A stretch of 64,000 bases of DNA from Parcubacteria group bacterium. Its GTDB lineage: Bacteria; Patescibacteriota; Minisyncoccia; Phycocordibacterales; UBA2135. A model generated the notes under the pieces. That model did not search any database. It saw only the letters and a list, made by a program, of their open reading frames with translations, and was not told the origin of the DNA. The stretch's first letter is position 1, and each line of letters opens with the position of its first letter. The position numbers were made by a program, and so were the translations under genes. Where the stretch lies: positions 12,558 to 76,557 of the forward strand of contig JACOWN010000004.1 in assembly GCA_016176785.1 (NCBI GenBank), read 5' to 3'. Shown in pieces: positions 1,992 through 53,931 of the stretch.

Positions 1992-2387
1992 TTATTGATG
2001 CGGGCGGTTCGCGTGCGGGCGTTCCGGATGGGGATGCGCCTCGTGCTGGGCCTCTTGAAGCGCGCGAGAAACGCGCTCACCGATCATCTGCTCGATCTTG
2101 CCGCGGAGAAGGGACGTGAGGAAAGACAACCGAAGGAAAACGCGAACGTCGTCGCTTCGGATGGAAAAATCCCCCTGAAACTCAAAACTCAAAAACGAGA
2201 ACTTGACGTGGATGTTCTCATGCTCGTCTGTGCGTTCAAGCGCCTTCTGCTCGTCGGCAAATTCCCGCACGAGATTATCCGTAAGTTTTGCGAGAGCGGC
2301 GTGCGCCTGCTCAACTGAAAGACACCGGAACGGGACATCAAACTCAAGCGTCCGATGGGGCATTGGCATCTCCAAATTGTTCAACAT
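1992..2387 (-). CDS. Hypothetical protein. The start is assigned at the MLNNLEMPMP methionine, which lies inside a conserved palindrome.
   Basis: ORF 1992..2447 with mixed, non-repetitive composition, in contrast to the Arg-rich antisense ORF. It is followed directly by the terminator hairpin. Its function is unknown. Confidence 0.4.
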   Translation of the reverse strand: MLNNLEMPMPHRTLEFDVPFRCLSVEQAHAALAKLTDNLVREFADEQKALERTDEHENIHVKFSFLSFEFQGDFSIRSDDVRVFLRLSFLTSLLRGKIEQMIGERVSRALQEAQHEAHPHPERPHANRPHQ

Positions 2388-25260: not shown

Positions 25261-25567
25261 ATTTCACTTTTATTTTTGCGTACGGCTGCCGATGGCCCCT
25301 TTTCTTGTGGTAACGGACCTTCGCGCGAAAACGGACGACGGTTACCTTTTTCCCCCTCCCCTCCTCAACGAACTCCGCCTCAACCTTCGCCCCTTCTACG
25401 TACGGCGTCCCGATTTTTGTTTCCGTGCCGTCATCCCACAGAAGCACTTTATCAAACACCACCGTGTCACCGGCGGCATGCCCTCCCCCGAGTTTTTCTA
25501 TTTTCAGTGCTTTTCCCGGCTCCACTTTATACTGCTTTCCGCCGGTTTCAATAATCGCGAATTTCAT
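25259..25567 (-). CDS. rplU: 50S ribosomal protein L21.
   Basis: MKFAIIETGGKQYKV...VRFRAKVRYHKKRGHRQPYAKIKV. Confidence 0.9.
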   Translation of the reverse strand: MKFAIIETGGKQYKVEPGKALKIEKLGGGHAAGDTVVFDKVLLWDDGTETKIGTPYVEGAKVEAEFVEEGRGKKVTVVRFRAKVRYHKKRGHRQPYAKIKVK

Positions 25568-25606
25568 AGTGCTCTTATCCTAGATGCAAAGAAGCCAAAA
25601 GTCAAA

Positions 25607-26668
25607 CTACTCTTCACCCATCTGCGGTTTCTCAAGAAAAAGCGGCTCGACGCCCGCGTCTTTTCCCGTTATGCGAACGACGTCTTTGTCAATTTTCTTA
25701 AACTCCTTGTGCGCCGCGTTGTAATGCGACACCGTCGTCTGCAGCGAACCGCCGAGTTTGTGCAAAAAGCCGTCGTAACTTTCAATGTGCCGCCCCAACT
25801 CCCCCACCCGTTTGATGATCCCCTCCGCCCGCTCCTCGATCTGGAGCGCTCGCAGGCCCTGCAGTACGGTCTGGAGATACGCGAGGAACGAGGTCGGCGA
25901 GACAATGATGACTTTATATTTGCTTGCGGCGCGCTGGATAAGATTTTCGGTGTCGTCGGTCACCGCGCCGATCTTGTTGACAAGGAGGTCGTAATAGATC
26001 GCCTCGTGCGGGATGAACATAAAAGCGAAGTTCATCGTGCGCTCATCAGGCCGCACGTATTTGGCCGTTTCAACGATCCGATTCTTGAGGTCGTTCACGA
26101 ACACCTTTTCAAGACGCTCGCGCTCGGTCGGGTCTTTTGCCTCCGCGAGGCGGTTGTAATTTTCAAGCGAGAATTTGGAGTCAATGGGGATGATGCGGTC
26201 TTTCACAAAAACCACGGCGTCAACGATCTCGCCGTTGGAAAACGCGTACTGCATCTGGTAGTCGTCCGCGGAGAGAACATTTTTGAGGAGCGTTTCAAGG
26301 TAATACTCGCCGAGCACTCCCCGCTGTTTCGGATTCTTCAATATGTCCTGAAGATTTTGAAGCTGTTCGGCGAAACCGACCACCTGACGCCCCGTCTCTT
26401 TAACCGAGGTCAGCTCCTTGGTGATCTCTTTGATGAGGCTGTGCGATGCGCTGTATTGCTCGCGCATGGAATCGTGCATCTGCCGCTGCGATTCCCCCAG
26501 ACGGTCATCAAGCGTCTTGGTAAGCGCGGCGATCTGGTTCTGTATAAGCGTCAAACTGCCGACGCCGCTGTCGGCGCTTCGCTCCCGCGAGCGAAAGAGG
26601 GCCCAAAGGAAAATCCCCGCCGCAAGAGCGCCGACCGTGATACCGATGCCGAGCAGGAAGTAATTCAT
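25607..26668 (-). CDS. rmuC: DNA recombination protein RmuC.
   Basis: N-terminal TM helix then a coiled-coil, and the RmuC conserved C-terminal region (…VIIVSPTSFLAYLQTV…); 353 aa. Confidence 0.8.
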   Translation of the reverse strand: MNYFLLGIGITVGALAAGIFLWALFRSRERSADSGVGSLTLIQNQIAALTKTLDDRLGESQRQMHDSMREQYSASHSLIKEITKELTSVKETGRQVVGFAEQLQNLQDILKNPKQRGVLGEYYLETLLKNVLSADDYQMQYAFSNGEIVDAVVFVKDRIIPIDSKFSLENYNRLAEAKDPTERERLEKVFVNDLKNRIVETAKYVRPDERTMNFAFMFIPHEAIYYDLLVNKIGAVTDDTENLIQRAASKYKVIIVSPTSFLAYLQTVLQGLRALQIEERAEGIIKRVGELGRHIESYDGFLHKLGGSLQTTVSHYNAAHKEFKKIDKDVVRITGKDAGVEPLFLEKPQMGEE

Positions 26669-26688
26669 GGGTTATGTGACCGCCGAGC

Positions 26689-27654
26689 TCAGAGAAGCAG
26701 GCTCGCGGCAAAAAAGCCGAAGTATACCAAGAGTAGCATGACCGCTTCAAAACGGGTAATCCGATTCGCGGTGTAAACGAACAGGTGAAAAAAGAGGAAC
26801 GCGATAAAGAGAGCCGCCGCAACGAACACGAAATTCTCCGTCGTTTCAATGACGATGGGCTGTATAATGGCGACGAGACCGACGACCGCCGCCGCCTTGA
26901 ACGCAATGGAGCCGAGCGCGTTGCCGAGCATCGCCTGCGCTTGTCCCGCCGCAACGGCGCGGATCGAGAAAATGAGTTCCGGCAATACGGTGCCGAGTGC
27001 GAGCACGATCGCGCCGAACAAAAGGTACTGCGACGCGAAATAGGTTTGAACGATCTCCCGCGCGGACCATATCAACAAAAATGAACTCGCGAGCAGGACG
27101 GCGACGCCGAGCAAAAAACGGGAAAGATGATGAAAGACATGCCCCACCGAACGCAGGCCCGGATGACGGTGGGCGGGCGTCATTTCTTTGTGGAAATACT
27201 CTTTGTCGCGAAAAATTTTTATGAGGTAGAGCGCGAAAACGCCGATGAGCACAAAACCGTCGCCGCGCGATATCGTCCCGTCCGCGCCCAAAAGGATGGG
27301 GAGGACGCCGATCAAAAAAATAAGCCAGAAATTTTGCGACGATATCCTGCCGTCCCCGCGCACCGCTCCGGAAATGATGACCGCCGCGCCTATGACGAGC
27401 GTGATGTCCGCAAGATTTGAGCCGAAAATGTTGCCGAGCGAAAGTGTCGGCACCCCCTGGAACGCGGATGAGATGCCGATAAAAAGCTCCGGAACCGACG
27501 TTGCGAGCGCCACGAAAAAAAAGGCGGTGATGAACTGCGAAAGTTTCAATATCTCCGCGATGCCGCCGACTGCGCGCGGAAGCAATCGTCCCGCCCAGGT
27601 GATAAGCGCCAGCGATCCGGCAAAAATGAAAAAGGAGAAGTCCATATATGACAC
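26689..27654 (-). CDS. Ca2+/Na+ antiporter (CaCA/YrbG family).
   Basis: Two alpha-repeat motifs, GNIFGSNLAD and GNALGSIAFKAAAVVG, and about 10 TM helices. Confidence 0.8.
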   Translation of the reverse strand: MSYMDFSFFIFAGSLALITWAGRLLPRAVGGIAEILKLSQFITAFFFVALATSVPELFIGISSAFQGVPTLSLGNIFGSNLADITLVIGAAVIISGAVRGDGRISSQNFWLIFLIGVLPILLGADGTISRGDGFVLIGVFALYLIKIFRDKEYFHKEMTPAHRHPGLRSVGHVFHHLSRFLLGVAVLLASSFLLIWSAREIVQTYFASQYLLFGAIVLALGTVLPELIFSIRAVAAGQAQAMLGNALGSIAFKAAAVVGLVAIIQPIVIETTENFVFVAAALFIAFLFFHLFVYTANRITRFEAVMLLLVYFGFFAASLLL

Positions 27655-30914: not shown

Positions 30915-33900
30915 GTGCGGATAAAATGGAGGCAGAAAACACGGCGCCCTCCCCCTTTCTCGGAGTATCCGACAGACATGTCGAACCGACTATATCCGTT
31001 TGACGAAAGCCGCCTCAAGTCGCTCTTTGAAAATTTTACCGGAGAACCTTTCAGAGCAGAGCTTGAGAAATACATCCGCGAGGAAATACTTCCCAAAATT
31101 CCCAACCCCAAGACTGGAGCGCGCGGCAACGCCCTGAATCCCGCGCTACGCGCCGCCATTGAATACGGCAGACGTCACGGCCTTTTGAAGCCCGGGCATT
31201 TGGTGATGAGTTCCGCGCTTGACGCCTGGAACGAGGAACAAAAAAAGCGTTTCCGCGAACTCTACGAAAGCGGCGCCTCGTATCGCGCCATCGCGGAGGA
31301 CCCGCTTCTCAAAGACGCTATCGCCGATTTCAAAAGCCGCACCACCGCCGTCAGCAATGCCGCGGAGCGTCTCAGGTGCGACAAGGCGAAGCGGCGGCAG
31401 GCGAAAAGAACGACTCACGAAGCAAAGAAAATTGACTCCGTATGGGGCCTGCCGGGATTCAAGGAGCGCGTGCACGCCATCGTATTGAGCGGCGCATTGG
31501 TTGATTCGGGTCCAGATGCGCTTTTTGAACTCCTTCGTAAGGAGTTTGCCGAAACCGCCAAAACATACCACCTTACGTTCAGCAAGAGCGCCTTCAAAAA
31601 GCGGCTTTACGAGCTTCTCTGGCCCCCGGACGTCGACAAGGCGCTCCAAGAGGTGATACGGGCTCGTATGGACCCCAAAAAAGAGTTCTGCCCGCTTTTC
31701 CCCCATATTCCGGAGAGCATGGTAGAACGCCGTGCGCGGTGGCACCGCGGCGTTATCACAACCAGCAAACGTTCAGGCAGGGCGGTGCCCGGTATTTTCC
31801 GCGTTCCCGCGCGAGCCGAGTTCGGCGACCTTTCAAAGTTCCGCATGCCGCAGACAAGTTTTCGCAAGCCATGTGAAATTGCGTTTGCGGACGACAAAAA
31901 CGACTGGACGCTTATGTTTCTGAACGGCGCAAATATCGGAACGCAGTATCCCGCGGACATCGTCGGCAATCCCGTGCGACGCGCGCTTTCTGACGCCGAG
32001 TTTCGGGGTGACCGCGTCGTGTTCGCGACAAACATCCTCGCCATGGAACTCAAGAAGGCCGCTGGCCCACGCAAAGTGGGACGCGCGCTTGTTATGGGCG
32101 ACAATATCAACACTAAAATCTTTGCGGATGAAGAATACCGCCGCGAAGTTGAGGACATTATTGCCAATGCCCCTGAAGACGAGGTTGCATATCAGAACGC
32201 GGAGGAACTCTTGGACAATCTTCTCGCGGGCTGGAGAAAAATCTGCGTCAAACCGAATAAAAAACCGGAATTCACGAGATCAATTTTCGTCATCCTCGGC
32301 TACAACGAAGAAGAAATCATCAAAACAATCGCGTACTGGGACGTGCATTACTGGACCCAACTGAAACAAAACGAATTGAGCGCGAAGATAAAAGTTACCT
32401 CTCTTGCGCTTGCGGCAGCCGAAAGAAACGATGACTGGACGCGTTTTGCCGAGAATGAACGCCGTCTAGAAATCCTGCAGGAGCGCCTTAATCGTACGCG
32501 CGTGACGAATGTTGCGACCCAGGAGTGGCAACGTTTTTACAATCGCGCCCGCGCGCTCGTCGTACGGAAAATTGAACGGGCGATCCCGAACGCAAAAGTC
32601 ATCGGCCAAGGAACGACACTCGTAAAGATCGACGGCGAGATTATTGAAATTAATATTCCGCATCATGACAGAGTAACCGACGCGCTCCTCAAGAACTATG
32701 CCGGAAATTACGGACCGAGGAATCTCCGAGAAATGCTCGCAAAGACCGTCGTTATCTGCGGTCCATGGGGAATCCAGTTCCGCGGGACGGTCCGCGAAGC
32801 CGATTACGACGGCAAGCGCGGTTCAGCGAAGATTTTTGTCGCGCCGATCGATGTTGACGATGCATACCTCCGCGAGATTCTTGCGGACACGGTAAAATCC
32901 GAACACCCGCTTGCAAGGGCGATGTCAAATGACCAGTTTTTCCCCGGCGTTTTGCGCTTAAGCCGCGCCAATGGCGTAATTGATGCGGATTTCGTTCCCG
33001 TCAAAGCGCTTGAGGCGCATAAAAAATATCCCAAACCGCGGCGCCAGAACCGGGATAGCGTAAGGCATTTTTCGCCTTACGCGCAAGGTACAAAGTACAT
33101 CTGGATAGAAATTCCCTCGGACCCTCATTGGGGCGGGCGCTCAAAGGAGTTCGTCACCGATAAGGCAAGCGGCAAGCGTCTCGGCATGGGTGAAGCGGTA
33201 TTTGAGATGCAGCGCCGCGAGGGGCTCTGCGTAGGCACAGCGATGCCGGTGCATATTGTCGCGGTTTGCGATGACCCCTCGCAAGGGCAGAACTTTCCCG
33301 CGCGCACGCAGCCGCATCCGCACGAACTCTCGCCGCAGCGCATTGAAGAGCTTTCGCTCGCACTCATGAAACATGCGGACCGCATACAAGATCCCCAGGA
33401 ATTCCGCGAAATCCTCCGCTCAATGAACCGATTCTACAGTTACCAAATTGAAACTCGCGCCGCTGATTTCCCGCACCACCAGATGTTCCAAATGATCGAA
33501 CGACAAATCATGCCGAATGCGGATATTTGGAGCGCGGTGCTCCGTCGCGCGCGACATGCCGGGCTTGTTGTTCGCGGCTTGAGCGCGTTCCCCGAAGCGC
33601 GCGAAGCATACGCGCTTGCGCGGGAAGACACGCGCGATGTCGGCATCTTGAACTTCGGCTCCGGAAACCACATGGAACACACGGTGAACGGAGAGATTAT
33701 TGAGGGACCGTTCTATGCGTTTATCCTCCGGCTTTTGCTCGGGAAACAGGACGAATGGCACGGCGAGGAGGAATTTCTCCGCCGCATGGTCGCCGCGCCG
33801 CATTACAGCGGCAAAGCGATCGGTTGGGGACGATTCCGCGTCGGTAACGGTTATGAATACGGCCTCGAAGTGCGCGACTCGCCTCCTCGGATGAGCGGCT

Positions 33901-34253
33901 GGGGCGACCCGATTTACGGAGCGGTCAAAAACGATCCCCAGCGAGGTAACTATTCGCGTATCTTTAACGGCCGCATGGCGGTGAAGATTTACGGCGACAA
34001 ACACTTCTTCGGAACGGCGGCAACGGACTACGCGCTCTACCATATGAGCGCGTCGGGCACGCATACGGACAGGTACGGCGAATACGGATTCCCTCCGAAC
34101 AATACCGGCGTATCGTTTGTCGGGCTTCCCGTTGACGGCCCCGACAGCGGCCCGATTCTCATCCGTTATCTCCCGTTCGATGTCATCAAGGATTTCGTGG
34201 AAGATAACCCCCGTCCGTTTGACTGGGAAAAATATCTCCAGAATCCCGCGTAA
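30915..34253 (+). CDS. Large hypothetical protein, 1112 aa from a GTG at 30915, or 1091 aa from the ATG at 30978. It has no recognisable domains.
   Basis: Uninterrupted ORF with a balanced, non-repetitive composition; a strong intrinsic terminator immediately downstream; no TM segments or signal peptide evident. Confidence 0.7.
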   Translation: MRIKWRQKTRRPPPFSEYPTDMSNRLYPFDESRLKSLFENFTGEPFRAELEKYIREEILPKIPNPKTGARGNALNPALRAAIEYGRRHGLLKPGHLVMSSALDAWNEEQKKRFRELYESGASYRAIAEDPLLKDAIADFKSRTTAVSNAAERLRCDKAKRRQAKRTTHEAKKIDSVWGLPGFKERVHAIVLSGALVDSGPDALFELLRKEFAETAKTYHLTFSKSAFKKRLYELLWPPDVDKALQEVIRARMDPKKEFCPLFPHIPESMVERRARWHRGVITTSKRSGRAVPGIFRVPARAEFGDLSKFRMPQTSFRKPCEIAFADDKNDWTLMFLNGANIGTQYPADIVGNPVRRALSDAEFRGDRVVFATNILAMELKKAAGPRKVGRALVMGDNINTKIFADEEYRREVEDIIANAPEDEVAYQNAEELLDNLLAGWRKICVKPNKKPEFTRSIFVILGYNEEEIIKTIAYWDVHYWTQLKQNELSAKIKVTSLALAAAERNDDWTRFAENERRLEILQERLNRTRVTNVATQEWQRFYNRARALVVRKIERAIPNAKVIGQGTTLVKIDGEIIEINIPHHDRVTDALLKNYAGNYGPRNLREMLAKTVVICGPWGIQFRGTVREADYDGKRGSAKIFVAPIDVDDAYLREILADTVKSEHPLARAMSNDQFFPGVLRLSRANGVIDADFVPVKALEAHKKYPKPRRQNRDSVRHFSPYAQGTKYIWIEIPSDPHWGGRSKEFVTDKASGKRLGMGEAVFEMQRREGLCVGTAMPVHIVAVCDDPSQGQNFPARTQPHPHELSPQRIEELSLALMKHADRIQDPQEFREILRSMNRFYSYQIETRAADFPHHQMFQMIERQIMPNADIWSAVLRRARHAGLVVRGLSAFPEAREAYALAREDTRDVGILNFGSGNHMEHTVNGEIIEGPFYAFILRLLLGKQDEWHGEEEFLRRMVAAPHYSGKAIGWGRFRVGNGYEYGLEVRDSPPRMSGWGDPIYGAVKNDPQRGNYSRIFNGRMAVKIYGDKHFFGTAATDYALYHMSASGTHTDRYGEYGFPPNNTGVSFVGLPVDGPDSGPILIRYLPFDVIKDFVEDNPRPFDWEKYLQNPA

Positions 34254-38458: not shown

Positions 38459-38740
38459 TTAGGGGTATGCCAGCGGGGTGACCGCGCCCTCGGCTTCAAG
38501 AAGGCGTCGTTTCTTCGCCGCGCCGCGGTTATAACCGCCCGTCGCACCGTCGGAGCGGATGACGCGGTGGCATGGTATCGCGGAGTTCCTGTTTTGCGCG
38601 AGAACATTTCCCGCGGCACGGTATGCGCGCGCCGCGCCGGCGCGGCGCGCGACTTCTTTATAGGTCAATACTTCTCCGCACGGAATACGCCTCACGACTT
38701 TCAAAACTTTCTCCGCAAACGTCGCTCCGCCGTTTTTCAT
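38459..38740 (-). CDS. Methylated-DNA-protein-cysteine methyltransferase (MGMT/Ogt) DNA-binding domain protein.
   Basis: IPCHRVI active-site motif (PCHR). It is short, about 93 aa, from the start at MKNGGATF. Confidence 0.8.
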   Translation of the reverse strand: MKNGGATFAEKVLKVVRRIPCGEVLTYKEVARRAGAARAYRAAGNVLAQNRNSAIPCHRVIRSDGATGGYNRGAAKKRRLLEAEGAVTPLAYP

Positions 38741-38798
38741 GATTGTACGGTAACAAAAGAACTTCTTTAAAAGAAGTCTTTTGTTTTTGAGTGGGCCA

Positions 38799-40973
38799 CT
38801 AGCGGACAATAAGGCCGTTCAACACATTGAACACCGCGCCGAAAAATACTGTCGGATTCAATGACTGCGGTGCGGGAGCCGGTTCTGACGGAGGAGGCGG
38901 CAGCGGAGAAAAGTCAGTCGGAGGCGGCGGCTCGCTCGGAGCGATAAAGTTTTGAGGCGGGAGCGGCTCGGCGGTCGGGAAAGGCATCGTTTGCGGAACG
39001 GCCCCTTCTTCTCGCGGAGGAGGGGGCATAAATCCCCCCTCGGGAGGCATCACAGGAAAACCGTTCTCACCCTCGGAAAATCCTTCGGGACGCATCGGCA
39101 TTGCCTGCGGAATGAACCGCTCCATCTCGTCCGGTCTCTTCATTTCTGTATCCCCCCGTTCGCCTTCCCGCATTTCACGCGGCATACCGCCGTCGGGAGA
39201 TTGGAACGGAATGCGGTCCCCCTCTTCCTTTGGGCGGTTAAAGAATCCCGGGAACCCTCGGGGAGGAACCGAAGAGCCGTCTTGCGGCATCATTCCCTCT
39301 TGCGGCATTGCGCGCGGAAGCGGCGGCCGCATTTCGCGTCCTTCACCCGGCGGAAATCCTTGCGGTGGGCCGGATTCTCCTTCCTTAAACTCTCCGAAAA
39401 ATTGTTCGTCGCGACGAGGCATTTCACCGCGCTCAAACTGCGCGCGTATCTGGTTGAACTTGTCAAACCGTTCTTGGAACTCCGGCGGGACATCTCCCGG
39501 AACGCCGCCCGGACCGAAACCGGGAGGAGAACCGAAACCGGGAGGCGGGCCAAACCCCGCGGGCCCTCTTCCGCGCGGCTCAAACCTCTCAACTTCCACA
39601 AACCGCTGAAGTTCTTTTTTCGCTTCGTTCGGATTAAGGAATCCTTCGTTGACGGCAAATGCCGTGCATTCTTCAAAATGCGACGGGTCGGAACAGTACT
39701 TTCGGCACTCGCCTTCCCCGCGGCAGCCGCCGGGGCCGCCTTGCTCCTGAACTTTTTTGTCAAGGGATTTGAATTTTTCGATCCGCGCGAGCTCCTTGGG
39801 CGGCAGGAGGCCGTTTGTTTTTGCAAACTCAAAACATTCATCGCGGTGCGCGGGGTCGCCGCAGTACTGCTCACACTCCCTGCCGCGGCAGCCGCCGGGA
39901 CCGCCCGCCTGCGATGCGGCAAGAAACTTTCGCGCTTGCGCCGCTTCGTCCGGCTTCATCAAACCGTTCTGTTCGGCGAACGCAAGACACTCTTCTTCGT
40001 GACCGGGTGTTTCGCAATAATCGCGGCATTCTTGCCCGCGGCAGCCGCCGGGGCCTTCAACGTCAAGCAACCGCTCAAATTTCTCCGCATCCGCCCTGTC
40101 CTCAAACAGGTCGTGTTCTTTTGCGAACGCGAGGCAGGTTTTCCCGTTTGCCGGATTTGAACAGAACTGGTCGCACTCTTCAAATCCTTGGCAACCGCCC
40201 GGACCGCCTCCCGCCTCCTCCAAAACTCGTTGGGCCTTTTCAACGTCAATCCGCGGTCCGGGTGGGCCACCGCCCGGACGAGGCGTGCCGCGGCCAGGGG
40301 CCCCGGGAAATTCGCCGCGAAGGAACTTTTTCGCTTCTTCCGCTTCATCAGAACTCATCTGCCCTTCGGCGACCGCAAAGTCAATGCACTCCACTTGGTG
40401 CGTTGAACAGTATGAGTTGCACTCCGCAGCGCTTCGGCATCCGCCCGGGCCGCCGCGTTTTGCTCGCGCCGCTTCCTCGGAACTTATCTGCCCTTCGGCG
40501 ACCGCAAAGTCAATGCAGGTGTTTGAATTGGCCGGTTCATTGCAGAATGCGTTGCATTGTTCCGGCGTTCGGCAGCCGCCCGGGCCGCCGCGCCGCGCGC
40601 GCGCCGCCTCCCCGGGACTTATATGGCCATTCGCTTCGGCAAAACCGATGCACTCGTCAAAATTTGACGGCGTATCGCAATACGAACGGCATTCGTTTTC
40701 ACCGCGGCATCCGCCGGGGCCGCCTTCATCGGGAACCGGAGCGGGACCGCCAACGTCAAACCCGCGGCCTCTCGCCCATTCAACGCACCGGCTCGTATTG
40801 GCGGCATCATCGCAATACTCCGCACACTCATCAAGCGAGCCGCAATTTCCGAGTTCGGCGACGGGAAACTCAATATCAAAAGGGTTGATCTGCGCGCGCG
40901 CGTCCTCGCCTGAAAACGCAAAAACACCGACAAACGCCGCGAAAAGAATGAGGGGGTAAATAAAGTATTTCAT
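38799..40973 (-). CDS. Secreted tandem-repeat protein: a signal peptide, eight ~45-aa cysteine-rich repeats, and a C-terminal Pro/Gly/Glu/Met-rich low-complexity region.
   Basis: Start at MKYFIYPLILFAAFVGVFAFSG (signal peptide). The repeat consensus is GGPGGCRG.xEC..YC..P.....C..FA...G.....EA..A, with 4 Cys per repeat. The last ~250 aa are PGFGPPPGF/MPP-rich, ending in a hydrophobic TVFFGAVFNVLNGLIVR. Confidence 0.75.
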   Translation of the reverse strand: MKYFIYPLILFAAFVGVFAFSGEDARAQINPFDIEFPVAELGNCGSLDECAEYCDDAANTSRCVEWARGRGFDVGGPAPVPDEGGPGGCRGENECRSYCDTPSNFDECIGFAEANGHISPGEAARARRGGPGGCRTPEQCNAFCNEPANSNTCIDFAVAEGQISSEEAARAKRGGPGGCRSAAECNSYCSTHQVECIDFAVAEGQMSSDEAEEAKKFLRGEFPGAPGRGTPRPGGGPPGPRIDVEKAQRVLEEAGGGPGGCQGFEECDQFCSNPANGKTCLAFAKEHDLFEDRADAEKFERLLDVEGPGGCRGQECRDYCETPGHEEECLAFAEQNGLMKPDEAAQARKFLAASQAGGPGGCRGRECEQYCGDPAHRDECFEFAKTNGLLPPKELARIEKFKSLDKKVQEQGGPGGCRGEGECRKYCSDPSHFEECTAFAVNEGFLNPNEAKKELQRFVEVERFEPRGRGPAGFGPPPGFGSPPGFGPGGVPGDVPPEFQERFDKFNQIRAQFERGEMPRRDEQFFGEFKEGESGPPQGFPPGEGREMRPPLPRAMPQEGMMPQDGSSVPPRGFPGFFNRPKEEGDRIPFQSPDGGMPREMREGERGDTEMKRPDEMERFIPQAMPMRPEGFSEGENGFPVMPPEGGFMPPPPREEGAVPQTMPFPTAEPLPPQNFIAPSEPPPPTDFSPLPPPPSEPAPAPQSLNPTVFFGAVFNVLNGLIVR

Positions 40974-40983
40974 GGAGAGAATC

Positions 40984-41241
40984 CTATCTGAAAGGATTAA
41001 CGGCGCCGCCGCTCTCAAACGGGTTTGTGTACGCTCCGCCCACCGGATTGGCCGCCGTCTCAAACGGATTCGCCTTCTGCGCAATTTCCGCCTGCGCCGC
41101 CTCCTTTTGCGCCGCGAGAAGGTCGCTTTGGCCTTTTGAGTAGCCGAAATAGTAACCGCCGCCGAGACCGATAACGATCGCGACCGCCACGATGACCCAC
41201 ATATTGATTGCTCCTTCTTCGTATTCGTGGTTCATAGACAC
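40984..41241 (-). CDS. Hypothetical small membrane protein, 85 aa, immediately upstream of the Cys-repeat gene.
   Basis: One TM helix (WVIVAVAIVIGLGGGYYFGY), then three N-P-F motifs (ANPFET, TNPFES, VNPF). It sits 8 nt upstream of the next ATG. Confidence 0.5.
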   Translation of the reverse strand: MSMNHEYEEGAINMWVIVAVAIVIGLGGGYYFGYSKGQSDLLAAQKEAAQAEIAQKANPFETAANPVGGAYTNPFESGGAVNPFR

Positions 41242-41356
41242 AAGGACGATCTGCGGCCCGCAGATCGCGTTATGATTATGACTGATAAATAAATGACGAA
41301 TTCTCTTTTAGTGTATCACGCTCAACACAAAGATGCTTACCGCTCAAGGGGCGCAC

Positions 41357-43624: not shown

Positions 43625-44947
43625 TTATACCGGCAAATTGGTGGGCGGTTCGCCGCGCCGCGATTCAATGCGTTCAAAGGTCGGCGTCTCCGCAACGCGG
43701 CCGGGGAAGTGGTACAGCGTCGCGAGTTCCTCGGTGTTCAAGACATACGCCTTGCGCTCATACGGCGGGAAAAACCACGACCGCTTGCGGTATCCGTCAA
43801 ACAAAATCCATTTTTTGTACGCAACGCGGGCGCCGGAGGGAGAAAAAAACGGCGCGCCGATCCCGGGCCCTTGCGGGGGAATGTTAATGTAGTGCTGCCA
43901 CGGGAAATCAATATCGGTGTAGTCGCGCGGCCGAAATCCGTTCAGATCGTTGGTTGAATACGCCTTCATGACGCCGAACATGCCGGCGATGTTCGCCCCG
44001 TTAAAGGCGTCTTTTTTGGCGAGATAGATGGCACGGATGCCGCAGTCATATCCAAGCTTTCCGATCTTTCGCTCGATCGCTTTTATCGTGTTGCGTTCGC
44101 CTTCGGTCATCATGGCAAAGCGGAAATCCGACCCCTCCATCCCGGGCGCGGCGCCCGAGCGTTCTTTTGATTTCTCAAAAATCTCATTGATGATCTCCTT
44201 GCCTTGGTCTTGCCAGTCCTCATTCACGCCGAAAATGGGGGTCGGGTCTTTTTTGCCCTTATTCGCCCGCACGATAATTTGAAACCATACCTGCTCGCCG
44301 CGGCCGACACCCCCCATGAACTCAAGCATGGGTGTCAGGGGGTCAACCTTGAGTTCTTCTTTGGGGTCACGGTCAAGGTTGTAGTCAACATACGTTTTGA
44401 GCGGAAAGGGGCTTTGTTTTGTAAGGGTAAACTCTGCTGCATACAAATTCCAATCGGAACCCTTGCGCGCGTAGGGAACTAGGGCGGTATAATCGGACAC
44501 TTCGTGGACTTCGGCGTCCGGATATTGCGAATACACCTGCGTTTCTATGAATTTTGCGACGGCTGCGCGCGTCCAAACAAAAAAGTGTATCGCTCCCTCA
44601 AGGGAAACGAGCTCAAGCGAGAAATAAGCGCGGGTTTTCCCGAGAACATAGCGGTCATACCAATTTGATTCGCCGACCGTCTGGTGAAGCGCGTTCAAAA
44701 CGACCTCCATCGCGAGCGGCGATTTCATCTGTTCGCGCGGCACTTTTATTTCAAGGAGGGTGATTTTTTGCCCAGCAAGAAATCGCGCGCGTTTATACGG
44801 CACCCACAACGTCCAAAAGATGAGGAGCAAAACGGGCGGCAGCCAGAACGGCGTATAGGCAAACGTGTCGGCAAAAAGCCGCGCGAGTGTTTCCGAGGAA
44901 AACGCAACGCTCTGCCAGAAAAAAACCAGCGGATCGGGTACGTTCAT
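43625..44947 (-). CDS. Hypothetical membrane-anchored protein of about 440 aa, with an N-terminal TM segment and a large soluble domain.
   Basis: ORF with its start at MNVPDPLVFFWQ (or 4 codons upstream at MIYA). It is co-directional with and 4 nt upstream of mltG. No domain recognised. Confidence 0.6.
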   Translation of the reverse strand: MNVPDPLVFFWQSVAFSSETLARLFADTFAYTPFWLPPVLLLIFWTLWVPYKRARFLAGQKITLLEIKVPREQMKSPLAMEVVLNALHQTVGESNWYDRYVLGKTRAYFSLELVSLEGAIHFFVWTRAAVAKFIETQVYSQYPDAEVHEVSDYTALVPYARKGSDWNLYAAEFTLTKQSPFPLKTYVDYNLDRDPKEELKVDPLTPMLEFMGGVGRGEQVWFQIIVRANKGKKDPTPIFGVNEDWQDQGKEIINEIFEKSKERSGAAPGMEGSDFRFAMMTEGERNTIKAIERKIGKLGYDCGIRAIYLAKKDAFNGANIAGMFGVMKAYSTNDLNGFRPRDYTDIDFPWQHYINIPPQGPGIGAPFFSPSGARVAYKKWILFDGYRKRSWFFPPYERKAYVLNTEELATLYHFPGRVAETPTFERIESRRGEPPTNLPV

Positions 44948-45080
44948 TGCGTATATCATACCGCAGATGTGCCGTTTTTCGCAAACACGACCTCCCAGCG
45001 GTACGAAAACCGCGCCCCGCTTCAAGCGGGGCGCGGAATGCATATTCGCCGGGGGACGCGTGGACGCTCTCGCAATCGGC

Positions 45081-46127
45081 CTAACCGACAAGCGTATATC
45101 TGCCGTCGGCGTCGCGTTTGAAATATCTTTTGTTTTGGAGATTAACCACCACGGTATTTTCCTTCACATACCGCTCTTTGAGCACGCGCTCAACCAAATC
45201 CTCGCGCGACAACTTTCCTTGTTCTTTGAGTATCCGCATGATGATCTCGCGCACCACGCCGTTTGAATACCCCCATTCGGCGAGACCGTATAAACCGCGG
45301 CCAACCAGCACAAAGCGTTCCTTATCCTTGATAAGTTCGTTGTGACAGGTCGCCACATGCGCCGGACGGTTGAAAAGAGCATGGATCTCTTGCGCAACTT
45401 CGCTAAAATGCAGCGGGGACCCGTGTCGGCGAATAACGAGATATGCGTAGTCGCGGACGCCGCGCGCGCGGATGTTGGGCGATGCGGCAAGCCCCCACTC
45501 GCCCAATGAGTTTACGCCGACCATTTTTGAAATGTTGAGCCAGCGGCGCATCGTTTCTTGATTTCGAAAGTTGTCTGGCGCTCCCGCAAGCCGTTCACCG
45601 AAAGAATTGAGAATGTCGTCTTCGGCGACGAGGTCATCCGTTGACAGCGACTGATATAAACTGTGAAGCGCCTGGTGGACGATCGAGCTCACGCGCTCGT
45701 CAACGCTCCAGCGGTGTTTGAAATGTTGGTCTTCGCGCTTGCGCTCAAATCCGTCGCTCAAGACAAGGAGGAAGTGGGCGTGGTTCTGCGCGCTTCTGTC
45801 CTTCGCCACATGGAGAAGCACGTCCTCTTCGGCGACCAAAGCGCCGAGGGCGTGGACAAAGTCCCGCAGCTCTTCGCGCGCCGCGCTCTCCGCTTCGTAT
45901 GCATCTGATTTTTTGATCGCATTCAGAGCAAAGTTTTCTATCTGACGCACGCGCTCTCGCGTGATGCCGTATTGTTCGCCGATTGACTCAAGCGTTCGCC
46001 GTTTGGCGTCAACGCCGAGGCCGAAGCGGCTCGTAAGGACATCGCGGGCCCGGTCTGGAAGCACCGCAAGTAGATTTTTATTGACCTGTTTTGGCTTGAA
46101 GGTGAGAACCGCTTTCATATGGCGCAA
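45081..46127 (-). CDS. Sigma-70 region-4 HTH plus HARE-HTH domain protein.
   Basis: The N-terminus RTLESIGEQYGITRERVRQIENFAL is a sigma-70 region 4. The C-terminus SPLHFSEVAQEIHALF…ERFVLVGRGLYGLAEWGY looks like a HARE-HTH domain, as in the RpoE-delta N-terminus. Confidence 0.65.
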   Translation of the reverse strand: MRHMKAVLTFKPKQVNKNLLAVLPDRARDVLTSRFGLGVDAKRRTLESIGEQYGITRERVRQIENFALNAIKKSDAYEAESAAREELRDFVHALGALVAEEDVLLHVAKDRSAQNHAHFLLVLSDGFERKREDQHFKHRWSVDERVSSIVHQALHSLYQSLSTDDLVAEDDILNSFGERLAGAPDNFRNQETMRRWLNISKMVGVNSLGEWGLAASPNIRARGVRDYAYLVIRRHGSPLHFSEVAQEIHALFNRPAHVATCHNELIKDKERFVLVGRGLYGLAEWGYSNGVVREIIMRILKEQGKLSREDLVERVLKERYVKENTVVVNLQNKRYFKRDADGRYTLVG

Positions 46128-51654: not shown

Positions 51655-53931
51655 CTACGGCCGCCCTCCCGCGCGGATGATCGCGATCCACTGTGCGGCT
51701 TGTTCCTTAAACCGCGGTTCAAGCTCAGCGGCTTTTTCAAGCTCGCGGATCGCATCCGCCCGCCTCCCCAATTCAACGTATGCGGCGGCGAGAGAAATGT
51801 GCGCTTGAACATCGTTCGGGTTACGACTTAAATAATCGAGCCAGAGCGCAGCGACTTTTTGAAAATTGCCGGCATCAACATATGCGGCAACAAGCGGCGA
51901 GCTGCGGACATCTATCCTGTATAATTGGCCTGCGAGCAATTCTTCAGCGCGTTTCTCGTTTCCGGTGCGGATAAGCATGGTGACGTACAAGTTCAAGGCG
52001 CGACTGTTCTTTGGCTCAAGCGCAAAAGCATCCTCCGTTGCCTTAAGCGCCCCCTTAAAATCGCCCGCATTCAGATACGCGTCAGCCAGCAAAAAATAAA
52101 TGTCTTGCTTTTTTGGCGAAGCGGCAAGAGCCTCCTTGGCATAAAAGAGCGCTTCTTTCGGCATTGAATAAGAGGCGAGAAGCGACACGAGGAACAGGTG
52201 ATATCGCGCGTTCTTGGAATTTTCTCCAATTTGCGCCAATAATTCGCCTTGAGCCAAAGTGAAAAAACTTCGTTTAATCTCTTGCGGAACCGGCGACTGC
52301 GCAAGTGAAATCGTAACTTGCGCAAGCTGTTCGCGCGCTTCGGCTCGTCCTAAATATCCCAAAGCGATCGCTCGTTCAAAGCTACGGAGTTTTTTCTCAA
52401 GTGCCGCCCGTTGTGCATCCGGAGTTCCCGCCCCTTGAGCCTCGCGGAGATCAATGCCCTGAAGAAGCGCGCGATTTGCCAAAATCCCCTTGATATTAAA
52501 AAAATAGACGCCGAAAATAATCGTGACGACGACAAGGGGGGCGACAAAACGCTCCATGATCTCGCGACGGGGCGTCTCCGCGCGCGCTCGTTTGGGAATC
52601 AAAAAAGAAAAAACAGATGGCGCCTTCTCGAACGATTGGCCGTGAATAAACGCGAGAACCAAGAAAAAGAAAACGTAACTTACAACGTTGTCAAAGACGA
52701 AAAGATTTTGAAAAAAATACGCCGCCAAAAGCCCGGTCAAAATGCTTTTTTCGGCGGGGTTGAACCGCTCCGCGCGCCTTTCCCCCCGTTCGTCGTGCCG
52801 ATTGGGATATACCCAAATCGCATACAAAAGAGCTAGAAAGATAGAAAGGTATGCGAGAAGTCCGAGGAAGCCTCCCGCGATAAGCCAGTCAAAAACGACA
52901 TTATGCGCTCGGTCAAACCACGGTTCTTGCGCGTACATCCGCGGGTCGTAGTATTTGCTGAACACAAGCATGAAATTGTCCTGTCCCCAACCGAGAAGCG
53001 GATGCTCTTTCACGCCTTCCCACGACATGCCCCACAAAAGAAAACGCGACTCCCCCACCGAAAGCGATATGTCGGAAAGCCGTCCCAGCGCGGGACTATT
53101 GTGGATGAACTCCGTCTTTCTGACAGCCATGAAGCCGCTTATTAAAATGAGAAGCGCTATGAGCGCCGCGAGCGCGGGCTTTTTCAACGAGGGCGCTTGA
53201 CGGCCGCCCCAAAAGAGCATGAGGCACGCCGTGAGTATCACACCCCCCACAAACGCAAGAATGGCGCCCCTCGTTGCGGTGTTAAATAAAATGAAAAAAT
53301 TAAGCGCTCCCGCAGCCCCGTATGTCCATTTAAGAATTCGGCTTTTGTTCTCTCCGGCAAAAAGAAAGGCGGCGAAGAAAATATGAAAGAGGAGGTACGA
53401 CGCCAGATACGTCGCGTTACCGAAGGTGGCATCAACACGAGCGCCTCCCTGATTTATCACAATGAAACCGAGAAGTTGAAAAATGCTGTAAATTGAAACG
53501 AGAACGCTCACACCAAGCGACGTTTGCAAGAATCGTGTCCACAGGGTGCGCGTCGTGAGCATTGAACCCGCAACGGCGAACAGAGCAACGAGGTGCAGAA
53601 GCGTGATGAGGCCGTCCATCCGTTCATAGTTTGACCAAAAACTCCGCAAGAAATTTTCGCCAAAAATATCGGCGGCGGTGATAATGCCAAGAAAAACAAT
53701 GAGCGTTCCCCAAATCCATGAAAACCGGAGGCGGTAGCGCGCGTCCCGCCACGCCAAAATGAGCCACCCGCCCAGAATAAGCTCAACAATGATCCGGAAT
53801 GCGAAATTTTTTCCCGTAATAAACGGAAAATACATCATTTTGGCGACGACAAAAGGCAGGAACGGAAGCAAAAAAATGCCGCCAATAATGCCGTAGCGAA
53901 GTATTTTGTTGAGCGTTCCATCCGATGGCAT
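51655..53931 (-). CDS. O-antigen ligase/polymerase-like (Wzy_C) polytopic membrane protein with a C-terminal TPR-repeat domain.
   Basis: About 12 TM helices over the first ~430 aa. The C-terminal ~300 aa contain tetratricopeptide repeats (…ALGYLGRAEAREQLAQ…YLNAGDFKGALKATEDAFALEPKNSRAL…). Confidence 0.8.
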   Translation of the reverse strand: MPSDGTLNKILRYGIIGGIFLLPFLPFVVAKMMYFPFITGKNFAFRIIVELILGGWLILAWRDARYRLRFSWIWGTLIVFLGIITAADIFGENFLRSFWSNYERMDGLITLLHLVALFAVAGSMLTTRTLWTRFLQTSLGVSVLVSIYSIFQLLGFIVINQGGARVDATFGNATYLASYLLFHIFFAAFLFAGENKSRILKWTYGAAGALNFFILFNTATRGAILAFVGGVILTACLMLFWGGRQAPSLKKPALAALIALLILISGFMAVRKTEFIHNSPALGRLSDISLSVGESRFLLWGMSWEGVKEHPLLGWGQDNFMLVFSKYYDPRMYAQEPWFDRAHNVVFDWLIAGGFLGLLAYLSIFLALLYAIWVYPNRHDERGERRAERFNPAEKSILTGLLAAYFFQNLFVFDNVVSYVFFFLVLAFIHGQSFEKAPSVFSFLIPKRARAETPRREIMERFVAPLVVVTIIFGVYFFNIKGILANRALLQGIDLREAQGAGTPDAQRAALEKKLRSFERAIALGYLGRAEAREQLAQVTISLAQSPVPQEIKRSFFTLAQGELLAQIGENSKNARYHLFLVSLLASYSMPKEALFYAKEALAASPKKQDIYFLLADAYLNAGDFKGALKATEDAFALEPKNSRALNLYVTMLIRTGNEKRAEELLAGQLYRIDVRSSPLVAAYVDAGNFQKVAALWLDYLSRNPNDVQAHISLAAAYVELGRRADAIRELEKAAELEPRFKEQAAQWIAIIRAGGRP

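Follow-up and report, generated by a model that had tools for sequence, protein, structure and literature searches.

HcpB and HcpC of Helicobacter, like COA7, are built from alpha-helical Sel1-like repeats (36-44 residues in this family) of two helices and two cysteines each, cross-linked by disulfides in an exported or oxidising compartment, and the grooves of such solenoids accommodate extended peptides. Wall-anchored proteins of Gram-positive bacteria, substrates of the LPXTG/sortase type, combine a signal peptide, N-terminal repeats and a Pro/Gly-rich region that spans the wall with a hydrophobic C-terminus that has a basic end. In Escherichia coli PBP5 (DacA) a short C-terminal amphipathic helix attaches the exported protein to the cytoplasmic membrane from outside, and in archaeal S-layer glycoproteins of the PGF-CTERM type the ectodomain is followed by a Thr/Pro-rich, low-complexity spacer and a hydrophobic C-terminal anchor with a basic end. 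Here we analysed a stretch of 64,000 nucleotides from a Parcubacteria group bacterium (contig JACOWN010000004.1, positions 12,558 to 76,557; called the window below, with positions counted from its first letter), in which one gene encodes an apparently exported protein with eight four-cysteine repeats and a Pro-rich tail, and the gene directly upstream a small membrane protein with Asn-Pro-Phe (NPF) motifs. We favour, at a confidence a little below even, a reading of the large protein as an envelope-associated scaffold or attachment protein that acts together with the small NPF partner.

As a working analogue, the disulfide-cross-linked solenoids of Helicobacter come closest, with repeats that here, too, are predicted to be alpha-helical and exported and presumed to be disulfide-cross-linked, and with peptide grooves as a possible model for docking of the NPF motifs. 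The unit itself is different, however, with three helices, four cysteines and a GPGG turn, and Pfam placed the array outside the Sel1-like/Hcp family (PF08238): no Sel1 or TPR match was obtained at E ≤ 1 for the window protein or at E ≤ 0.01 for nine homologues. Superposition on SLR or TPR solenoids by Foldseek was equally poor (SLR protein c5321, E = 3.7 and TM score about 0.1; a designed TPR, E = 2.4 and TM score 0.29). The order of parts recalls LPXTG substrates, but the C-terminus is an amphipathic stretch of about 14 residues without a conserved LPXTG, and a dedicated small partner gene is present; of a sortase substrate only the hydrophobic stretch and the terminal Arg or Lys are found, with no LPXTG and no NCBIfam anchor match. 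With PBP5 the protein shares the short C-terminal amphipathic helix but no sequence relationship, and anchoring is suggested here by conservation, by a hydrophobic moment of 0.40 and by the terminal Arg. From the archaeal glycoproteins it differs in lineage and fold and in having neither a PGF motif nor an archaeosortase context. The overall layout is familiar and the parts, namely the repeat, the C-terminal peptide and the NPF partner, are new.

Results

Organization of the locus

The two genes and their products have the following features, given in the direction of transcription.

41246..41268, minus strand: perfect 10-bp GC-rich hairpin (GCGATCTGCG-GGC-CGCAGATCGT) that ends 5 nt before the GTG of the small gene
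40984..41241, minus strand: small partner gene, 85 residues from GTG or 83 residues from ATG at 41235
41140..41202, minus strand: transmembrane helix of the small protein, MWVIVAVAIVIGLGGGYYFGY, with the motif G-x3-G-Y-Y-x-G and Gly columns that are invariant in the alignment
40987..41073, minus strand: NPF tail of the small protein, ANPFE..ANPVG..TNPFE..VNPFR
38799..40973, minus strand: large gene, 724 residues plus stop, ATG start at 40973 (MKYF...)
40893..40973, minus strand: signal peptide, residues 1-27, Sec-type, likely cleaved between ARA and Q, as read from the sequence
40314..40892, minus strand: N-terminal cap (NPFDIEFPVAELGNC) and four-Cys units 1-4, residues 28-220, predicted local distance difference test (pLDDT) about 86-96
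40254..40313, minus strand: Pro/Gly-rich linker between the four-unit blocks, residues 221-240, pLDDT <50 at residues 223-235
39579..40253, minus strand: four-Cys units 5-8 with a leading helix, residues 241-465, pLDDT 88-96
38856..39578, minus strand: disordered Pro/Gly/Glu/Phe/Arg/Met-rich tail, residues 466-706, pLDDT 34-50 except for the helix 497-514
39432..39485, minus strand: Phe/Arg/Glu amphipathic helix in the tail, residues 497-514, PEFQERFDKFNQIRAQFE, pLDDT about 93
38802..38855, minus strand: C-terminal hydrophobic/amphipathic helix, residues 707-724, ...PTVFFGAVFNVLNGLIVR, with a final Arg; helix 707-723 at pLDDT 50-64
38748..38780, minus strand: AT-rich hairpin with a U-run, 20 nt past the stop of the large gene (-14.8 kcal/mol, z-score -3.1)

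The product of the large gene is identical to a database entry named 'MAG: hypothetical protein HYS74_00595 [Parcubacteria group bacterium]' (MAG, metagenome-assembled genome); when started at an upstream TTG, as in a mechanical call of the open reading frame (ORF), it would count 761 residues. A database protein that is 98% identical to the small-gene product (P0189) has 83 residues. The small gene lies upstream of the large one with a gap of 10 nt, and the hairpins on both sides agree, together with this gap, with a two-gene transcript. The downstream hairpin is a possible terminator of this unit, and the upstream one could be the terminator of mnmA or an element of the 5' untranslated region that occludes the start region of the small gene. 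Around the locus the window carries housekeeping genes (mnmA, a YceG/MltG-like gene, leuS and rpoBC).

In all 15 testable loci a small gene of about 80-105 residues and of the same design lay directly upstream of the large gene on the same strand. The loci named for this count are the window, L001, L003, L005, L006 and L008-L016, with L007 cut at the contig end; a genome scan for the cassette gave at least 11 loci. An all-against-all BLAST of the neighbours in the 15 loci revealed no conserved neighbour besides the small NPF gene. An earlier note on this DNA, made from its letters, had described a secreted protein of about 725 residues paired with an upstream 85-residue protein that has one transmembrane helix and three NPF motifs. 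The 724-residue ORF with its Sec-type signal peptide, the recurrence of the pair and the three NPF motifs, to which one degenerate NPV is added, all bear this out, and the large ORF proved to be unbroken across the family.

In the Azambacteria locus L015, two tandem small NPF genes (1714-2049 and 2074-2364, plus strand) stand upstream of the large gene. On the other side of the window locus, an ORF at 38459-38809 (minus strand) encodes a protein of at most 116 residues whose only match is to the DNA_binding_1 domain of O6-methylguanine methyltransferase, with the PCHRV active-site motif retained. From its TTG start it would overlap the 3' end of the large gene; an ATG at about 38741, past the hairpin, is the likelier start.

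The four-cysteine repeat array

The signal peptide, MKYFIYPLILFAAFVGVFAFSGEDARA followed by Q, has an AxA site and lacks a twin arginine, as read by eye from the sequence. The 32 cysteines of the large protein fall into eight units of exactly four each, with the pattern C-x4/5-C-x3-C-x6/8-C, in agreement with the eight tandem four-cysteine repeats seen earlier. GPGG precedes seven of the eight units, and unit 1 has ELGNC in its place; the consensus of the N-terminal cap in the family is F-D-I-x-F-P-I-x-E-L-G-x-C. From first cysteine to first cysteine, successive units are spaced by 45, 45, 45, 82, 50, 51 and 55 residues. The unit length of about 45 residues given before thus fits units 1-4, but not the later spacings of 50-82 residues. 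The array is split into two blocks of four by the linker of 20 residues, which is predicted to be disordered.

About 1000 units from 120 proteins gave the consensus GGPGGC-(R/K)-G-x2-E-C-R-x-(Y/F)-C-x-(D/N)-P-x-(H/N)-x2-E-C-x2-F-A-x3-G-x-(I/M)-(S/P)-x-EEA. Exactly four cysteines were present in 975 of 979 units from the 120 homologues, and because just 4 of the 979 depart from this number, the cysteine pairing cannot be deduced from degenerate units. Between Cys 3 and Cys 4 a His (58%) or Asn (37%) is conserved.

AlphaFold2, run on the large protein with an alignment of 96 sequences, predicted a signal-peptide helix at residues 2-21 and, after it, a break of low confidence at 25-28. Residues 30-220 and 240-465 were modelled at a pLDDT of about 90 or more, with 337 residues at 90 or above, and a separate model of a di-repeat reached 87.7. 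In the predicted unit fold, a 3-10 turn formed by GPGG leads into helix A with Cys 2 and Cys 3, helix B with Cys 4, and helix C.

The repeat had been noted before as unlike any named domain, and the searches uphold this. Pfam and NCBIfam, applied to both proteins and 25 homologues, left the repeat unmatched and gave sub-threshold or accessory-module matches only. The best hit of a di-repeat profile in an hmmsearch against all PDB sequences was tablysin at E = 0.41, which is spurious, and Foldseek returned nothing at E ≤ 0.001 for the full model and the di-repeat against PDB or for the di-repeat against BFVD. Matches to the Pfam families SHOCT-like (PF22746), DUF2680 and SPP1_GP23-1 stayed below the cut-off of 27 in the window protein (13.3 bits) and exceeded it in a few homologues (P0007, 33.9 bits; P0061, 30.5 bits). 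They span about 20 residues where helices B and C meet (FA-x3-G-x-[IM]-[ST]-x-EEA) and exclude the cysteine part; they look like a common capping-box helix motif rather than homology.

The proline-rich tail and the C-terminal helix

Residues 481-724 (244 residues) contain 54 Pro, 30 Gly, 28 Glu, 23 Phe, 19 Arg and 14 Met. The earlier description of a Pro/Gly/Glu/Met-rich tail of about 250 residues therefore holds for Pro, Gly and Glu and for a length of about 240 residues, but Phe and Arg exceed Met. The Phe/Arg/Glu-rich helix within the tail recurs in homologues, for example as IPPEFRDRFE..F..FEQFRGEFE.

The large protein ends in ...SLNPTVFFGAVFNVLNGLIVR. In nearly all homologues the last 14 or so residues are rich in Phe, Leu, Ile, Ala, Gly, Asn and Ser, and about 100 of 120 retain the helix, with a mean hydrophobic moment of 0.40, a terminal Arg or Lys in 73 of the 120 and, often, PPPP(S/T) just before the segment. 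It is kept even in a variant of 1431 residues (P0247) despite many extra modules. A sortase or exosortase signal, proposed earlier as something to check at this end, did not emerge. No conserved LPXTG was found in the 120 C-termini, the LNPTV of the window protein is not kept in homologues, and NCBIfam at E ≤ 1 matched no sortase, exosortase, archaeosortase or rhombosortase sorting model (PEP-CTERM, PGF-CTERM, GlyGly-CTERM and others) in the window protein and 10 homologues.

The small NPF protein

The small protein consists of a short N-terminal tail, the transmembrane helix, a segment rich in Ala, Glu, Gln and Lys, and the C-terminal NPF tail. Of 120 homologues, 96 carry four NP[FLVIMY] motifs, with a spacing of mostly 8 residues, and in 119 of the 120 the chain ends at NPF plus at most 3 residues. 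The family counted 251 matches, nearly all of 73-109 residues, without a domain fusion in any of them and without a Pfam match to the family.

Two annotations were considered and rejected. FliL, a JGI (Joint Genome Institute) label on some homologues, scored 13.4 bits against a cut-off of 179, and the resemblance is just that of an N-terminal transmembrane helix. The NPF motif as an EH-domain ligand (PF16601) gave E = 0.11 and 13.4 bits against a cut-off of 27.6; we know of no EH domain in the Parcubacteria lineage. An NPFD at the mature N-terminus of the large protein in the window might seem to link both proteins, but the family has SIFD, SPFD or NIFS at this place, and the shared motif is probably a coincidence of sequence.

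Distribution and variants of the family

A word-indexed search yielded more than 765 homologues of the large protein, and a profile search of 1.84 billion cluster representatives (50% identity) gave 1763 clusters at E ≤ 1e-3, of which 890 also passed a threshold of 1e-30. Among the matches listed, the nearest relative is only about 51% identical. Family members are named 'hypothetical' in their sources or after the accessory Kazal domain, and the organisms named are lineages of Parcubacteria/Patescibacteria (Sungbacteria, Niyogibacteria, Azambacteria, Wildermuthbacteria and Ryanbacteria). L007, L009, L012-L014 and L016 carry the cassette in TPA (third party annotation) MAGs titled 'uncultured Candidatus Saccharibacteria bacterium', an unconfirmed label that may be a generic placeholder for Patescibacteria. 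The literature on cysteine-rich proteins of Parcubacteria and the candidate phyla radiation (CPR) and on structure prediction in Patescibacteria contained no paper on the repeat family that we could find, and neither a paper nor a curated model was found for the C-terminal peptide or the NPF partner. The cysteine-rich proteins of Peregrinibacteria differ in being much larger and of Myxococcus type.

The intact ORFs of the family mostly encode 560-990 residues with 5-12 units, commonest 9. Position-by-position orthology holds for unit 1 and the last 2-3 units in proteins of 35-50% overall identity, while the number of middle units varies; conservation in the family is highest at units 6-8. Some homologues have accessory modules in the tail or at the N-terminus, all of extracellular type: a Kazal domain in the tail (for example P0026, 35.6 bits), Laminin_G_3/ConA-like domains, a MopE-like motif, extra GPGGC units, and an immunoglobulin (Ig)-like module that was called by eye and has no Pfam match. 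In the window protein Pfam detected no six-cysteine Kazal domain (PF00050/PF07648).

Three variants stand out. The 1431-residue P0247 contains numerous Cys-rich repeats of the form 'CPSGQYW(N/Y)' and, called by eye and without a Pfam match, a segment that resembles a Kazal domain. P0294 and P0298 have an N-terminal Ig-like module, likewise called by eye and without a Pfam match, and a Laminin_G_3 domain near the C-terminus; in P0294 the usual C-terminal helix is missing.

Discussion

As an envelope-associated scaffold or attachment protein, the large protein would be exported through Sec, as its signal peptide suggests, and its eight units would fold outside the cell into three-helix modules with two putative disulfides each. 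According to the prediction, these modules stack as two stiff alpha-helical rods of four units apiece. The disordered Pro-rich segment of about 240 residues may then serve as a spacer that spans the wall or a periplasm-like space, and the C-terminal helix of about 14 residues, ending in Arg or Lys, would keep the chain at the external side of the cytoplasmic membrane, either as an in-plane anchor as in PBP5 or as a very short tail anchor. The small protein would be a single-pass membrane partner whose chain ends with the tail of four NPF motifs at a period of 8 residues. How the two might meet is a guess: the NPF motifs may dock onto the helical repeats, like peptides in the grooves of TPR or Sel1-like solenoids, or the transmembrane helix of the small protein may pair with the C-terminal helix of the large one. 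The net role would be that of an envelope scaffold or tether, able to carry Kazal, lectin-like and Ig-like modules in some lineages.

Several points weigh against this reading. The pair is known here from sequences and predicted structures alone, and docking of the NPF motifs onto the repeats is a speculative proposal. The topology of the small protein is ambiguous, with a mean net charge of +0.16 on the N-side and +0.77 on the C-side of the helix (12-residue flanks), so that its NPF tail may lie in the cytoplasm. For an ordinary transmembrane span the C-terminal helix is too short; it frequently has polar or charged residues in it and was modelled at a pLDDT of just 50-64. When its hidden Markov model was run on the 64-kb window and 16 loci no other ORF matched, in a sample that is too small to judge a general sorting signal. 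The disulfides and their pairing are putative, and the four cysteines of a unit may instead form a metal site. Finally, the genes with a link to the cell wall that occur close by (MltG in the window, SLT_2 in L001 and L012, MurJ in L003, MreB in L005) are not conserved neighbours.

The rival explanations overlap with so broad a reading. The one that holds up best, though we consider it unlikely, is that an episymbiont uses the protein as an adhesin to attach to its host, or secretes it as an effector. The rods would then recognise a ligand on the host surface, with the tail and C-terminal helix serving only to present them or else entering the host membrane. An episymbiotic lifestyle is inferred for Parcubacteria, and in enrichment cultures high expression of exported proteins with adhesion-type domains has been reported. 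Lectin-like, Kazal and, by eye, Ig-like modules in homologues fit such a role, as do the variation of the middle repeats between 5 and 12 and the type IV pilus genes that adjoin the large gene in L001. That pilus linkage, however, is limited to one of the 15 loci, the window protein itself is devoid of an accessory binding module, and the conservation of the end units position by position, at 35-50% identity over many candidate phyla, would be unusual for host-specific adhesins. Together with the housekeeping neighbourhood, this orthology of the end units suggests a core envelope component and not a fast-evolving adhesin. The matrix or adhesion protein of the earlier note is plausible: the extracellular modules in the tails of some homologues speak for it, but the conservation of the end units fits a core envelope component better. 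The accessory binding modules leave room for an attachment role of the large protein.

An array that binds metal or clusters through the four cysteines of each unit, perhaps with the His or Asn, and that acts as an extracellular metal store, buffer or electron conduit, appears distinctly improbable; metal binding had been raised in the earlier note as well. The four cysteines are invariant within a helical segment of 20 residues, the conserved His or Asn lies between the third and the fourth, and a few homologues have the MopE-like putative metal-binding motif. In addition, compact four-cysteine spacings resemble some [4Fe-4S] loops, for example that of endonuclease III, and Parcubacteria are thought to inhabit anoxic, reduced habitats, where disulfides would be less stable. 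The interchange of His and Asn points, however, to a hydrogen-bonding or capping role and not to a metal ligand, and the CxxC or CC motifs typical of zinc sites and metallothioneins are absent. The signal is of Sec rather than Tat type, so that the chain crosses the membrane unfolded and free of cofactor, and disulfide-dependent Kazal domains occur in the same chains. CPR bacteria also encode a disulfide machinery of MdbA-like proteins and VKOR: the MdbA-like oxidoreductase family is enriched in CPR, with VKOR as its most frequent adjacent gene (Meheust et al.). Based on Sec export, the Kazal domains and this machinery we therefore consider two disulfides in each unit more likely than a metal site.

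Most improbable, by a little, is an S-layer protein or a stalk that ties an S-layer to the membrane by analogy with the archaeal S-layer glycoproteins, which have the same order of parts (signal peptide, folded ectodomain, low-complexity spacer, hydrophobic C-terminus with a basic residue). A surface layer of unidentified protein, reportedly seen by Luef et al. in 2015 in cryo-electron microscopy of ultra-small groundwater bacteria, would lend this reading some support, but Pfam and NCBIfam showed no SLH, PGF-CTERM or other S-layer signature, and no lattice is known to be formed by helical rods of such small disulfide units.

If the envelope scaffold or attachment reading is taken one step further, the cassette would be a Parcubacteria-wide envelope module composed of a new disulfide-stapled repeat fold, a new C-terminal membrane-attachment peptide and an NPF partner that docks into the array, a proposal that we make tentatively and regard as rather doubtful in its full extent. 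Such a module, if real, would act as a tether or spacer and define how the envelope of ultra-small cells is laid out from the membrane to the surface layer, or would mediate contact with a host. Parcubacteria form one of the largest radiations of uncultured bacteria, and few of their envelope-building proteins have been identified. Conservation of the cassette in many candidate phyla, its housekeeping context and a repeat without counterpart in Pfam, NCBIfam or PDB make it a testable candidate for an envelope or host-contact function. With about 1000 units already aligned, the repeat could be defined as a new domain family. The C-terminal peptide is a candidate for a new type of anchoring signal, and the NPF partner provides a simple hypothesis of interaction.

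Other genes in the window

Four further regions of the window attracted attention. At 51655-53931 (minus strand) an envelope-related protein of 758 residues combines a Wzy_C (O-antigen ligase-like) membrane domain with C-terminal TPR repeats. An ORF of 488 residues at 43625-45091 (minus strand), without a Pfam match and with hydrophobic N-terminal segments, sits between the YceG/MltG-like gene and a gene for a protein with sigma-70 region 4 and HARE-HTH domains (45081-46127). The 1112-residue ORF at 30915-34253 (plus strand) has no Pfam match at E ≤ 1e-5 and no visible signal peptide or transmembrane segment, and looks like a large cytoplasmic protein. Finally, long ORFs at 25292-26776 (plus strand) and 25607-26668 (minus strand) overlap on opposite strands; the former, of 494 residues, is rich in Arg, Leu and Phe, has no Pfam match and may be a shadow ORF of the minus-strand gene.

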